Source: Terriglobales bacterium (GTDB lineage Bacteria > Acidobacteriota > Terriglobia > Terriglobales > Acidobacteriaceae). From it: a stretch of 64,000 nucleotides of DNA. The stretch covers positions 1,155 to 65,154 of the forward strand of contig JAICXB010000018.1 in assembly GCA_025980765.1 (NCBI GenBank). The letters run 5' to 3'. Below are positions 45,782-54,001 of this stretch, piece after piece. Within the stretch, counting starts at the first letter, position 1; the number at the start of each line of letters is the position of its first letter. The notes under the pieces were generated by a model. The model had not been told where the DNA came from. It did no database searches and worked only from the letters and a program-made list of their open reading frames with translations. A program made the position numbers and the translations under genes.

Positions 45782-46975
45782 TCACTTCTCCAATTCGTAT
45801 TTCGCAATCGCTTCCGTGTGCACCTCGTCTGGACCATCCGCGATGCGCAACGTGCGCACCCCTGCCCAGGCAGAGGCAAGAAACGTGTCTTGCGAAACCC
45901 CCATTCCGCCGTGCGCCTGAATTGCCCGATCGAGGACGCGCAGCGTCATTTGCGGGGCGACCACTTTGATCATTGCGATCTCGGCCCGGGCAGCTTTGTT
46001 TCCCGCAGTGTCCATCATCCAGGCCGCCTTCAGCGTAAGCAGCCGGGCTTGCTCGATTTCGATTCGCGACTGCGCGATGTCGGCGCGAATCGTGCCCTGT
46101 TCCGCGAGCGGTTTACCAAAAGCTACCCGCGAGCGTACGCGCCGGCACATGATTTCCAGCGCCCGCTCGGCGAGGCCGATACACCGCATGCAATGATGGA
46201 TCCGTCCTGGACCGAGACGCCCTTGCGCGATCTCGAAGCCGCGTCCTTCGCCGAGCAGAATGTTGGCCACGGGCACGCGCACGTTGTTGAAGGCAATCTC
46301 GCCGTGGCCATGCGGAGCGTGATCGTAGCCGAAGACGGTGAGCAGGCGCTCAATCTTTACTCCGGGCGCATCCATGGGAACAAGAATCATGGACTGCTGT
46401 TTGTGTTTCGGCGCCGCCGGATCGGTCTTACCCATGAAGATGGCGAGCTTGCAGCGCGGATCGCCCGCGCCGGAGGCCCACCACTTGCGTCCGTTGACGA
46501 CATATTCCCCGCCTTGGCGACGAATACTCGCCTCGATGTTGGTCGCATCAGACGAGGCGACTGCGGGCTCGGTCATGGCGAAGCAGGAGCGGATTTCGCC
46601 AGCCAGCAATGGCTTTAGCCAGCGCTCCTTCTGCTCGGCAGTGCCATAACGGGCGAGCACCTCCATGTTTCCCGTATCGGGAGCGGAGCAGTTGAAGATC
46701 TCAGGAGCGATGGCGCTGCGCCCCATGATCTCGCACAGCGGCGCGTACTCGAGATTGCTAAGGCCGGCTCCCTGATCGTCGGTCGGCAGGAACAGGTTCC
46801 ACAGCCCGGCGGCGCGGGCTTTGCTTTTGAGTTCTTCCAGCAACGACGAATGCCGCCAGCGCTCGCCTTTGATTTCTTCCTCAAAGCGCTGCTCATTGGG
46901 ATAAACATGCTCGTCCATGAACGCGGCCAAGCGCTCTTGCAGCTCGACGGTTTTGCGCGAAGGTTCGAAGTCCAT
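45782..46975 (-). CDS. acyl-CoA dehydrogenase of the ACAD10/ACAD11 (FadE2-like) subtype
   Basis: 397 aa. [65 protein letters not shown] and [10 protein letters not shown] match the ACAD domain of ACAD10/11. Confidence 0.85.
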
Positions 46976-46983
46976 AGTCGCTC

Positions 46984-47712
46984 TCAGCGATGCGTGCGCA
47001 GTTCGGGGGCGTTCAAGTGCGGTACAGCATTGAAGCTGAACAATCGCAGCTCCGTTCCGCGCAGGCGCATGATCGTGTACGAGGCGTTGTGCAGCACGCC
47101 AGCCAGCCGCAGAACGCGACTGTCGGCAATGTCGAGCGCCATTCCCGCCCAGATTCCGATTGGCGCTGCCGAGGTGAAGACAACAATATTACCGGCGGCG
47201 GGTTCGCTGCCATTCATGCGCTCGCGGCAGCTTCCGACGCGAGCACAAAAACTGCTCCAACTCTCGCCCGAATATGGATGCCGGCCCGAAATCCAGGTAT
47301 TCACGAGCGTAGTGTCGCAAGGCAACCACCGGCGATGGACGCCCGAATCTTGGCCACGCGTGGCGCGTACTTCCTCGCGCATCGATTCATATTGAGCGCG
47401 GAATTCGGCATCTTCTGCGCAAAGCACCGGAGCGAGCTCGCGATAGATATGGTCCAGGTTGAACTCGTTCCAGCGTTCTTCAATTTCAATATTGGGAAAC
47501 CCATGTTGCAATCTGATACAAGCGGCACGCACCTCCGCGGCGGTTTCGCGCTGCCGATGCATGGCCCCGGAATATGCGTGCGAGAAGCGGATTCCCTGAG
47601 CGGCAAAATATTCGCCCAGCAACCGGGACTGCTGTCGTCCAAGCTCGGAAAGCGTGTCGTAGGCATCGCGGGTCCCCGCCTGTCCGTGGCGCACGAGATA
47701 GATGTCGCTCAA
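46984..47712 (-). CDS. histidine phosphatase (phosphoglycerate-mutase-like) family protein
   Basis: LVRHGQ (RHG motif) at the N-terminus. The TTG start overlaps the kinase stop (TTGA). Confidence 0.8.
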
Positions 47713-51914: not shown

Positions 51915-51952
51915 ACAGGTTCTCTCTAGATGAAGGGTGGAATCCAAAGAAT

Positions 51953-52415
51953 GTCATCCTGAGCGAGGGCGAACGCCCGAGTCGAAGGACCCCAACGCTG
52001 CTGATGCCCGATCCTGCCGCAGGAATTCTCCCGATGCGGCAATCTGTTTGTCCATGTGCGAATACAGATCCTCCCATCGCGGATTCTGCCGCTCAATCAG
52101 CGCGACTTTTTTCGATCTTCTCCAGCCCTTCAACTGTTTTTCCCGGCTGATCGCCCGGAATACGCTGTCAAACTCCTCTCGATAGACCAAACGCGTGCAC
52201 GAGTATTTTTTTGAAAAGCCCTCGAAGGCACCAGTTTTGTGCTCCCATACTCGCAGCTCCAGATCGCTGGTCACACGGATGTACAACGTGCCGCTCAGAC
52301 TCGACATGATGTATGCCCAGTATTGGTGTTCCATTCTCGAGATCAATCAGTAACTACCACTCTGCGAGAGTGCCGGGGTCCTTCGACCCGGGCGTTCGCC
52401 CTCGCTCAGGATGAC
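51953..52415. mobile_element. 463-bp element: a GIY-YIG gene bounded by 41-bp inverted repeats (40/41 match)
   Basis: Left IR 51953-51993 is gtcatcctgagcgagggcgaacgcccgagtcgaaggacccc. Right IR 52375-52415 is its reverse complement with one mismatch. The element sits between the ligase stop and the fadB-like start. Confidence 0.7.
51954..52334 (-). CDS. GIY-YIG nuclease family protein (UPF0213/YhbQ-like)
   Basis: YWAYIMSSLSGTLYIRVTSDLELRVWEHK (GIY...YIG equivalent), KQLKGWRRSKK and LIERQNPRWEDL. The C-terminal tail reads into the left IR. Confidence 0.75.
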   Translation of the reverse strand: MEHQYWAYIMSSLSGTLYIRVTSDLELRVWEHKTGAFEGFSKKYSCTRLVYREEFDSVFRAISREKQLKGWRRSKKVALIERQNPRWEDLYSHMDKQIAASGEFLRQDRASAALGSFDSGVRPRSG

Positions 52416-54001
52416 AACGGCATTAGTGTGCCCTGCCCCCAGTACTGTTTGCGCAAATCTTTCTTGAGTATCTTGCCGGTTCCCGTTTTAGGAAGCGATG
52501 CCAGGAATTCAACCGATCGCGGGCATTTGTAATGGGCGATGCGTCCTCGGCAAAATTCCAACAGTTGCTCCTCGGAAGCGCTTGCTCCCGGCCTCAACAC
52601 CACCAGCGCTTTCGGAACCTCACCCCATTTGGTGTCTGGCACCGGGACCACTGCCGTCTCATACACTGCGGGGTGCGCGGACAAGGCCTTCTCGATTTCA
52701 AGCGATGATATGTTTTCGCCGCCGCTGATGATGATGTCCTTCTTGCGGTCGACGACCAGAATATAGCCGTCCTCGTCCATGGTGGCCATGTCGCCGGTGT
52801 GAAACCAGCCGCCGCGCATCGCTTGCGCGGTGGCCGCGGGCTGCTTCCAGTATCCCTGCATCACACCGTCGCCGCGAGCCACTACTTCGCCGATGGACGC
52901 GCCGTCGTGGGGCACGTCACGCTCTTCGGCATCGACTACCCGCAGTTCCACTCCGGGAATCGCGTATCCGGTCATCGCCTGTCCATTCCAGCGTTGCTCG
53001 CCCTGCCACTCCGCTCCCGGCTTGCTCAATGAGACGGAGAGCACCGGAGAGGTTTCCGTCAGCCCGTACCCGGAATAGCAGGTGCATCCCAGTTTCTCCT
53101 CGATCTCCTTCACCAGCGCGGGAGACGATGCCGAGCCGCCGATGCTGATGCGGTCCAGGCTGCTCAGGTCATATTTCGGGCGTTCCGGGGAGTTCACGAT
53201 TGCGACTGCCATGGTGGGAACAATCCCAAAATGGGTGACCCGCTCCTGCTGGATGAGGCGGAAGATCTCGCTGCAATCCCAGAGCCGCAGAATCACGTGT
53301 TTGCCGCCGAGCATCGTGACCGTATGCGCAGCGCCCCAGCCATTCGCATGGAAAAGAGGGATGGTGTGCAGGATGACGTGCTCGATTCGAGGATCGGAGA
53401 CCATGGAGCTACTCAGCGCATGCAAATAAATGTTGCGATGGCTCAGCATCACGCCTTTCGGTTCGGCGCTGGTTCCGCTGGTATAGAAGAGTTCCGCGAG
53501 CGAGTCTTCATCGATCTGCATGATGTCGGCCTGATGCGGCTTGGCCGCAGACAGCAACTGGTCGTAGTGGTGAGGAGTCATCCAATCCGCCTGGGGAAGG
53601 GAATCGAGCGAGACGAATCGTTCGACGGAAGGAACGCTGCGACGAAACTGTTCGACAAAGGGAAGAAATTCCTTCTCGAAAAAAAGGATGCGCGCTTCGG
53701 AATCATTCAGGATGAAAGCGAGCTCCTGCGCAGCCAGGCGAAAATTCAAGGGCAGCAGCACCGCTCCCGCTTCGAGAACTCCAAAATAAGCTTCGAGCAA
53801 GCGATGGCAGTTCTTGCTGAGAAAGGCAACGCGATCTCCGGGCCCGATCCCGAGCTGCAGCAGCGCGCCGCCGAGGCGTGCGGCACGGTCCGCGAACTGC
53901 GCGTAGGTGAACCGTTCGCTGCCGCAGACGATTGCGGTGCGTTGTGGAAACTGCTGCTCAGCGTAGCGGAGGCAGCGCAGTGGGGTGAGAGGAATATTCA
54001 T
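52406..54001 (-). CDS. AMP-dependent acyl-CoA ligase (fatty-acid--CoA ligase)
   Basis: 531 aa with YTSGTSAEPKGV, the GYGLTET AMP-binding motifs and a C-terminal TGKILK. Confidence 0.9.
   Translation of the reverse strand: MNIPLTPLRCLRYAEQQFPQRTAIVCGSERFTYAQFADRAARLGGALLQLGIGPGDRVAFLSKNCHRLLEAYFGVLEAGAVLLPLNFRLAAQELAFILNDSEARILFFEKEFLPFVEQFRRSVPSVERFVSLDSLPQADWMTPHHYDQLLSAAKPHQADIMQIDEDSLAELFYTSGTSAEPKGVMLSHRNIYLHALSSSMVSDPRIEHVILHTIPLFHANGWGAAHTVTMLGGKHVILRLWDCSEIFRLIQQERVTHFGIVPTMAVAIVNSPERPKYDLSSLDRISIGGSASSPALVKEIEEKLGCTCYSGYGLTETSPVLSVSLSKPGAEWQGEQRWNGQAMTGYAIPGVELRVVDAEERDVPHDGASIGEVVARGDGVMQGYWKQPAATAQAMRGGWFHTGDMATMDEDGYILVVDRKKDIIISGGENISSLEIEKALSAHPAVYETAVVPVPDTKWGEVPKALVVLRPGASASEEQLLEFCRGRIAHYKCPRSVEFLASLPKTGTGKILKKDLRKQYWGQGTLMPLSS

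Follow-up and report, generated by a model that had tools for sequence, protein, structure and literature searches.

What could a histidine-phosphatase-fold protein be doing between the kinase and the dehydrogenase of a known bacterial route for 4-hydroxy acids? The question is raised by an operon in a stretch of 64,000 nt (hereafter the window; positions 1,155 to 65,154, forward strand, of contig JAICXB010000018.1) from a Terriglobales bacterium of the family Acidobacteriaceae (assembly GCA_025980765.1), where genes for a small-molecule kinase of the APH fold and an acyl-CoA dehydrogenase (ACAD) of the ACAD10/11 type stand together with those for an acyl-CoA ligase, a FadB-type enzyme and a double-bond reductase. 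Judged by sequence and synteny, this is probably an auxiliary beta-oxidation operon of a soil acidobacterium, whose products would let C4-hydroxylated fatty acids pass beta-oxidation. The core pathway itself is already known in bacteria, and the locus is a variant of the lva/ACAD10-11 system placed inside a beta-oxidation operon. New here is the finding that the phosphatase represents a large and distinct clade spanning several phyla, with a putative active site that carries Ser in place of the second catalytic His.

A kinase-dehydrogenase module in a probable beta-oxidation operon

The operon comprises seven co-directional minus-strand open reading frames (ORFs) between 45782 and 54001, in the order ligase, GIY-YIG, FadB, reductase, kinase, phosphatase and ACAD (Table 1). 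All of them appear in the ORF listing where an earlier reading of the bare sequence (the original prediction) had placed them, and Pfam agrees with the identity proposed for every gene. The tight junctions described there hold for five of the genes: the reductase stop overlaps the kinase start in GTGA (48779-48776), the kinase stop overlaps the phosphatase start in TTGA (47712-47709), and gaps of 8 nt and 10 nt separate the phosphatase from the ACAD and FadB from the reductase. They do not extend to the ligase/GIY-YIG (59 nt) and GIY-YIG/FadB (about 39 nt) junctions, which are loose because the GIY-YIG gene is an inserted element. It is from the overlaps only that we infer co-transcription of the operon genes. 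The operon sequence was found in soil DNA metagenomes and in one run of unknown type, with no usable RNA run among the matches, and scans for promoter and terminator consensus within the operon gave nothing exceeding the expectation from shuffled sequence.

The assignment of the dehydrogenase to the ACAD10/11 type is well borne out. Against the PDB it matched mouse ACAD11 (8v3u; 1.8e-146, 491 bits), an ACAD of M. abscessus (4hr3; 1.3e-142, 478 bits) and human ACAD11 (2wbi; 1.4e-140), while the best ordinary, classical ACAD reached 8e-42 and 147 bits, leaving a gap of about 345 bits; by PDB similarity it thus does not cluster with short- or medium-chain ACADs. The sequence strings by which it had been recognized all occur exactly, apart from the last, which reads IADGPDEVH and not LADGPDEVH. 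Within this string, D380 aligns with the catalytic Asp of mouse ACAD11 (D753) that replaces the usual Glu, and we take it as the catalytic residue because the position is Asp in the wild-type entry 8v3u and Asn in the inactive-mutant entry 8v3v. Moreover, R253, H261 and R264 are identical to R626, H634 and R637 of ACAD11, a cluster proposed, from the structure of ACAD11, to bind the 4-phosphate of the substrate (PMC12440821). The operon ACAD is predicted to turn 4-phosphoacyl-CoA into 2-enoyl-CoA by phosphate elimination.

Likewise, PDB matches and kept catalytic residues identify the kinase as the counterpart of the N-terminal APH domain of ACAD10/11, as had been proposed. The best match is 9o56 (1.2e-94, 320 bits), followed by 3dxp (1.4e-52) and the kinase domain of mouse ACAD11 (1.8e-45); matching residue numbers suggest that 9o56 is the ACAD10-type kinase of Caldalkalibacillus thermarum. 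Residues R65, E82, D218, K220, N223, D239 and E241 align with R61, E78, D214, K216, N219, D234 and E236 of the C. thermarum kinase, all shown to be essential there (preprint PMC13596139). The HxDxK...N and DWE motifs and the N-lobe Arg/Glu are thereby kept, and Arg replaces the beta3 Lys. The GTG start is backed by an identical 356-aa call with a 4-nt overlap in a close relative and by the 9o56 alignment, which begins at residue 10. Phosphorylation of 4-hydroxyacyl-CoA has been shown for LvaA(B), for the B. pseudomallei protein Q63VL0 and for ACAD10/11 (PMC12440821, PMC11342911), and the same activity is predicted for the operon kinase.

The ligase scores as a member of the long-chain-fatty-acid ligase subfamily. 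The FadB-type protein matched both FadJ (1e-160) and FadB (1e-153) of NCBIfam, in either case under the equivalog cut-off, and its start is set at ATG 51914 by comparison with a close relative (L089), while the ORF listing extends to 51947. Substrates of the proposed route could be 4-hydroxy acids or products of lactone and ester hydrolysis that are taken up, or mid-chain hydroxy fatty acids after shortening. Even-position mid-chain hydroxy acids are shortened to 4-hydroxyacyl-CoAs, ricinoleate for example giving 4-hydroxydecanoate. The ligase would make the acyl-CoA, the kinase would phosphorylate its 4-hydroxyl at the expense of ATP, and the ACAD would oxidize C2-C3, eliminate the phosphate and re-reduce the product to a 2-enoyl-CoA without net redox change; FadB would then hydrate and oxidize this enoyl-CoA, and thiolysis would fall to a thiolase encoded elsewhere. 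Medium- or long-chain hydroxy acids seem more plausible substrates than levulinate because the ligase is of the long-chain type, an LvaD-type reductase is missing, and FadA and esterases accompany the module in relatives. Its integration, in soil Acidobacteria, into an operon for general fatty-acid beta-oxidation with esterases nearby fits the breakdown of hydroxylated plant and microbial lipids.

Comparison with known systems

The kinase/ACAD bypass was worked out recently, in Pseudomonas in 2017 and in mammals in 2024-25, and has been linked to lipid-peroxidation products and gamma-hydroxy acid drugs. According to the accounts of Rand et al. 2017 given in later papers (PMC6692424, PMC12440821, PMC11342911), LvaA (with LvaB) of P. 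putida KT2440 phosphorylates 4-hydroxyvaleryl-CoA and LvaC removes the phosphate to give pentenoyl-CoA, with LvaD as the reductase and LvaE as the ligase of the lva operon. The acidobacterial operon shares with it the separate kinase and ACAD genes, an acyl-CoA ligase and the same predicted chemistry. It differs in having a long-chain-subfamily ligase, FadB and a PTGR1-type reductase, and in lacking a sigma-54 regulator, a symporter and an LvaD-type SDR, the nearest SDR gene (60486-61274, plus strand) being 6 kb off and beyond other genes. No small ORF lies between kinase and ACAD; instead, the 242-aa phosphatase gene holds the position of the 12-kDa lvaB of P. putida.

The original prediction called the phosphatase unexplained by the known pathways, and this stands, although the arrangement had been noted before. 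The lva cluster of P. citronellolis LA18T, described in 2019, contains an lvaA homologue, a histidine phosphatase family gene and an lvaC homologue, and its authors called for functional analysis (PMC6692424); in the literature searched we found no later work on the phosphatase. The trio has the same order in both loci, the likeness being one of gene order and family name. The P. citronellolis cluster, a levulinate-induced locus, goes on with an LvaD-type SDR, whereas the genes here are those for ligase, FadB and double-bond reductase.

In mouse and human ACAD10/11 both steps reside on one polypeptide (PMC12440821, PMC11342911). The split of the module into separate genes, remarked on in the original prediction, is no peculiarity of this locus but the bacterial norm, as in LvaA/LvaC and in B. 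pseudomallei, whose separate kinase and ACAD can replace the ACAD10 domains in vitro (PMC11342911). The ACAD and kinase are homologous to the respective ACAD10/11 domains and, as in ACAD10, a phosphatase-type module stands beside the kinase. On the other hand, the components of the operon are separate polypeptides, with another gene between them and no HAD domain, so the locus is a homologue of the ACAD10/11 domains and not a member of the fusion architecture. Since the operon phosphatase has the fold of a histidine phosphatase and not that of a HAD protein, it is analogous, not homologous, to the ACAD10 module.

Conservation of the gene order

A scan centred on the phosphatase, with one genome per species, yielded 371 loci, the best 80 of which were examined by locating the proteins of the window with tblastn. 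Nearly all of these 80 are labelled Acidobacteriota, with one metagenome-assembled genome labelled Candidatus Dormiibacterota, and these nearest relatives place the organism among the Acidobacteriota. In 66 of the 75 loci whose flanks are long enough, the kinase gene immediately precedes the phosphatase gene on the same strand, most often with an apparent gap of 5 nt. An ACAD10/11-type ACAD of at least 70% identity occurs in 66 of the 80 loci, co-directional in 27 of them and convergent in 39; FadB occurs in 39 and the ligase orthologue, upstream of FadB, in 23. Where an interval of 3 kb separates FadB from the kinase, it is occupied by genes for a thiolase and a type-B carboxylesterase, in some cases with an MFS transporter as well (L009, L016). 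Nine loci have no kinase next to the phosphatase, and several of these are labelled Pyrinomonadaceae or Pyrinomonadales; in three of the nine (L008, L029, L059) a kinase or an ACAD10/11-type ACAD lies within a few kb.

Outside the phylum, tblastn located the phosphatase in 45 records of plasmids and secondary replicons. Clusters of ACAD (56-70% identity), kinase and phosphatase are found in Deinococcus radiodurans, Pseudoalteromonas, Streptomyces, Burkholderia cenocepacia and Acinetobacter baumannii; a more distant one in Sulfitobacter combines phosphatase and kinase with other ACADs and SDRs, and Ralstonia and Cupriavidus metallidurans have weak phosphatase homologues without the kinase. The kinase was present in 258 plasmid records, and neither kinase query retrieved a Pseudomonas record from the plasmid collection. 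Clusters of other phyla include one or two LvaD-like SDR genes, and those of Deinococcus and Cytobacillus contain thioesterase genes. The phosphatase adjoins the kinase in at least four phyla, and the linkage described in the original prediction is conserved with the phosphatase included. Kinase-ACAD pairs without a histidine phosphatase also exist, in Cytobacillus (L092, Bacillota), Halomarina (L093, haloarchaea) and Rhodococcus (L094, Actinomycetota), which makes the phosphatase a widespread but optional companion of the kinase. In the Cytobacillus locus a thioesterase gene stands directly before the kinase, with SDR and MaoC dehydratase genes nearby, and the Rhodococcus pair is found among CoA-transferase, lipid-transfer/thiolase and OB-fold genes.

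An atypical histidine-phosphatase-fold protein

A single-sequence search of the PDB gave no match to the phosphatase, and only profile and fold searches placed the protein. With its AF2 model (pLDDT 80, pTM 0.82) as query, the top 50 PDB matches in Foldseek were all branch-1 histidine phosphatases (TM about 0.5-0.6, identity 16-19%, probability 1.0), among them iPSP1, RosC, PhoE, CobC, PGAM5 and Fru-2,6-bisphosphatase. It shares with this branch the fold, the RHG nucleophile motif (R8-H9-G10, with the nucleophile His), the second Arg and the Glu. The second Arg, R53, is placed by profile alignment to iPSP1 (RxxxT motif), and the acid/base Glu, E83, is assigned by motif position, in a region that the printed alignments do not cover. 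Across 60 representatives down to 28% identity, R8, H9, A12, G25, Q28, G49, R53, E83, S181 and N228 are invariant, and G10 is kept in at least 90%.

The second catalytic His of the S-H-G motif is absent. The family profile alignment sets N-I-V-V-F-T-S-A-x-P opposite V-V-V-V-S-H-T-V-P of iPSP1 and V-L-V-I-C-H-Q of Fru-2,6-bisphosphatase, so that S181 stands in place of this His; the Ser is invariant across phyla, with [TS]-S-G-G at its position in homologues from five other genera. Of the five canonical pocket residues, four are therefore unchanged throughout, and at the fifth position the Ser is just as invariant. H126/R127 were considered as stand-ins for the lost His and rejected, being invariant only within Acidobacteriota and not across phyla. 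Unlike other branch-1 histidine phosphatases, these proteins have [TS]-S-[AG]-[AG] for S-H-G-G and a helical insert of about 40 residues, and are tied to a 4-hydroxyacyl-CoA kinase. Invariance of the nucleophile His, the two Arg and the Glu over 60 divergent members suggests an enzyme that is atypical yet active, or at the least a site that binds phosphate, and not a decayed pseudoenzyme. Relatives number more than 1800 in a word-indexed protein search and 2119 clusters (50% identity level, E<=1e-10) in an exhaustive search; short matches of 100-130 aa in the representative search are fragments of full-length relatives. One member of the clade (P0240, 478 aa) has a C-terminal FKBP-type peptidyl-prolyl isomerase domain.

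Tentatively, and with rather less than even confidence, we favour a relief or repair enzyme that would dephosphorylate 4-phosphoacyl-CoA, or free 4-phospho acids released by thioesterases, and would thereby prevent the trapping of CoA and phosphate when the ACAD step lags. Such a role fits a core chemistry that runs without the phosphatase, the coupling of its gene to the kinase and not to the ACAD, the conserved nucleophile and the effect of an ACAD10 HAD mutant. In vitro reconstitutions of kinase and ACAD needed no phosphatase, free 4-phospho acids were seen in mammalian cells, and mutating the phosphatase-like HAD domain of ACAD10 raises 4-phosphoacyl-CoA (PMC11342911).

Several points weigh against this reading of the operon and its phosphatase. 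The ACAD10 HAD domain has negligible activity on 4-phosphohexanoyl-CoA (PMC11342911), a kinase and a phosphatase acting on one metabolite would form a futile cycle unless their specificities differ, and loss of the second catalytic His could leave the phosphatase with little activity or with none. The operon itself contains neither a thiolase nor a 4-oxoacyl-CoA reductase, and the C. thermarum kinase has been described as a 1-O-alkylglycerol kinase for which CoA thioesters are activators (preprint PMC13596139).

The phosphatase-fold protein could instead be a non-hydrolytic, stoichiometric partner or regulator of the kinase, comparable to LvaB or the ACAD10 HAD domain, which we regard as unlikely. 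Its gene is coupled to the kinase, by an overlap or a gap of about 5 nt, and not to the ACAD, whose gene frequently lies on the opposite strand; the whole clade is without the second catalytic His; in P. citronellolis a phosphatase occupies the lvaB position of P. putida and lvaB is missing (PMC6692424); and the HAD domain of ACAD10, although its phosphatase activity is negligible, reduces the output of the kinase (PMC11342911). However, strict invariance of R8, H9, R53 and E83 down to 28% identity is the pattern of a working active site, and kinases of this type, namely the B. pseudomallei enzyme and ACAD11, work alone in vitro. Many kinase-ACAD clusters also do without the phosphatase protein, and the best 150 representative clusters of phosphatase relatives include no fusion to a kinase, nor any to an ACAD.

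A broader and somewhat doubtful extension of the relief role would give bacterial 4-hydroxy acid catabolism a dedicated third component in the Ser-for-His clade, either an editing or relief enzyme or a phosphate-sensing brake on the 4-phospho intermediate, recruited for the same reason as the ACAD10 HAD domain but independently of it. If this were true, 4-hydroxyacyl-CoA kinases would generally need a paired phosphatase-type module, and the bacterial protein would offer a model for what the HAD domain does in ACAD10. The locus adds little to the core pathway, and its main interest lies in an atypical phosphatase that parallels the phosphatase-like domain of ACAD10 and whose carriers include tractable species (Acinetobacter baumannii, Deinococcus radiodurans, Burkholderia cenocepacia).

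Alternative substrates

The original prediction had read a complete route from 4-hydroxyalkenals into the operon, and its fullest form would be a detoxification pathway in which the reductase saturates a 4-hydroxy-2-alkenal that is then activated, phosphorylated and beta-oxidized. This appears improbable. The reductase does share the MDR subfamily and domain pair of PTGR1, LTB4 12-hydroxydehydrogenase, CurA and plant double-bond reductases (PDB: double-bond reductase 7e4d, 3e-103; PTGR1/LTB4-12HD, about 1e-68 to 1e-77), its translation is coupled to that of the kinase both here and in the close relatives that retain it (L089/L090), and mammalian PTGR1 reduces 4-hydroxynonenal. However, it misses the NCBIfam equivalog cut-offs of both CurA (365 bits, cut-off 440) and LTB4-12HD (261 bits, cut-off 580), and only two of the 80 other loci have it with the module (L041, L066; 45-46% identity). 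No aldehyde dehydrogenase is encoded in the operon or within about 10 kb, so a reduced aldehyde cannot become an acid at this locus, and the missing thiolase likewise leaves the route incomplete. The rarity of the reductase and the lack of an aldehyde dehydrogenase reduce the 4-hydroxyalkenal route to a possibility. The reductase is a lineage-specific accessory that probably reduces the double bond of alpha,beta-unsaturated carbonyl compounds, either ahead of the pathway or alongside it, and we know of no other description of a PTGR1/CurA-family gene placed in a beta-oxidation operon.

Some Acidobacteria make ether lipids, which counts in favour of the kinase being a 1-O-alkyl/acylglycerol kinase and the phosphatase acting on glycerolipid phosphates, in a salvage of ether lipids or lysolipids to which beta-oxidation would be linked only secondarily. 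According to a preprint of 2026, 1-O-alkylglycerols are substrates of ACAD10-type kinases, among them several prokaryotic homologues and the best PDB match of the operon kinase; acetyl-CoA activates the C. thermarum kinase, and the HAD domain of ACAD10 acts as a lipid-phosphate phosphatase (PMC13596139). We nevertheless consider such a salvage pathway very improbable here. In contrast to the C. thermarum kinase, the genomic context points to acyl-CoA substrates: the conserved partners are an ACAD bearing the R253/H261/R264 triad, FadB, the ligase and thiolase, with no glycerolipid genes among them, and the same trio recurs in Deinococcus, Acinetobacter and Burkholderia. The dependence of the kinase on CoA esters would fit a CoA-ester substrate too, and no homology links the histidine phosphatase with the HAD domain.

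An lva-type catabolic operon for levulinate or other short C5 4-oxo acids is likewise very improbable: although the core is LvaA-like and LvaC-like, the phosphatase is placed as in the P. citronellolis lva cluster and LvaD-like SDR genes accompany the clusters of other phyla, the operon has no LvaD-type SDR, LvaR-type regulator or acetate/levulinate symporter, its ligase is of the long-chain subfamily, and its conserved partners are FadB and, in relatives, FadA.

A mobile insertion and the operon boundaries

Contrary to what had been supposed, not all seven genes can be counted to one pathway operon, because the GIY-YIG gene belongs to a recent mobile insertion, a passenger unrelated to the pathway. 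The inserted unit is missing at the same junction in the close relatives L089/L090, and in a relative with 87-92% identical operon proteins ligase and FadB lie 57 nt apart without it. From the repeat onward, and exactly there, the ligase C-terminus diverges from that of L089, its last 10 codons or so coming from the repeat. Soil metagenomes cover the unit at 5-8 times the depth of its flanks, with many contigs breaking at the repeat ends, and it looks like a multi-copy mobile element.

The upstream end of the operon is probably marked by the hairpin at 54043-54091, which has a folding energy of -43.6 kcal/mol (z = -6.8 against shuffles) and is followed on the minus strand by UUUUGCCUUUG. It is likely a terminator, whose long loop let it escape the consensus terminator scan, and possibly a protein-binding palindrome instead. 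At the downstream end the operon meets a convergent DUF1697 gene, followed by a tRNA-Met gene. The DUF1697 gene was rejected as a member of the system, being syntenic in none of the related loci; the tRNA accounts for a very high metagenome depth at 45000-45366.

Neighbouring genes

Table 1. Coordinates of the operon genes, the inserted unit and surrounding features in the window
Feature	Position	Strand	Details
PhyH-family (phytanoyl-CoA dioxygenase-like) gene	40731-41399	-	about 4 kb downstream of operon
tRNA-Met (CAT)	45075-45151	-	beyond DUF1697 gene, downstream of operon
DUF1697 gene	45208-45765	+	convergent with operon
ACAD10/11-LvaC-type acyl-CoA dehydrogenase	45782-46975	-	397 aa; three Pfam domains; PDB matches, conserved residues
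Histidine-phosphatase-fold protein	46984-47712	-	242 aa; TTG start; Pfam His_Phos_1 9e-18
APH-fold small-molecule kinase, ACAD10/11-LvaA type	47709-48779	-	356 aa; GTG start; Pfam APH 1.5e-44
NADPH-dependent double-bond reductase, PTGR1/CurA/alkenal-reductase MDR family	48776-49777	-	333 aa; Pfam ADH_N_2 1.7e-40, ADH_zinc_N 1.9e-20
FadB/FadJ-type enoyl-CoA hydratase/3-hydroxyacyl-CoA dehydrogenase	49788-51914	-	708 aa; Pfam ECH_1, 3HCDH_N, 3HCDH
Inserted mobile unit	51952-52416	-	465 bp; 42-nt inverted repeats 51952-51993 and 52375-52416, 98% complementary
GIY-YIG nuclease-family gene	51954-52346	-	inside the inserted unit; Pfam GIY-YIG 3e-9
Acyl-CoA ligase	52406-54001	-	531 aa; first operon gene; Pfam AMP-binding 3e-89, AMP-binding_C
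Hairpin	54043-54091	-	17 bp, perfect; 15-nt loop, then U-rich tract; between upstream hydrolase stop and ligase start
Secreted alpha/beta-hydrolase	54095-55603	-	signal-peptide-like N-terminus; weak Peptidase_S9 match only
CarboxypepD_reg/OMP beta-barrel (TonB-dependent-like) protein	55742-59137	-	upstream, co-directional
TetR regulator	59459-60184	-	divergent from SDR gene, about 6 kb upstream of operon
SDR gene	60486-61274	+	divergent partner of TetR gene

The secreted hydrolase encoded upstream of the operon gave no match in the PDB or in NCBIfam. Its orthologue (68%) lies between FadB and kinase in two loci (L048, L080) and upstream of the ligase in L089/L090, and other Acidobacteria have a type-B carboxylesterase at the corresponding place. 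The hydrolase possibly supplies hydroxy acids from esters, in what is a loose association with the operon. Further upstream, the region between the outer-membrane protein and hydrolase genes (55568-55714) is variable among soil-metagenome contigs, with joints that skip about 125-145 nt and carry differing short fillers, and an imperfect 24-nt inverted repeat is found at 55615-55675.

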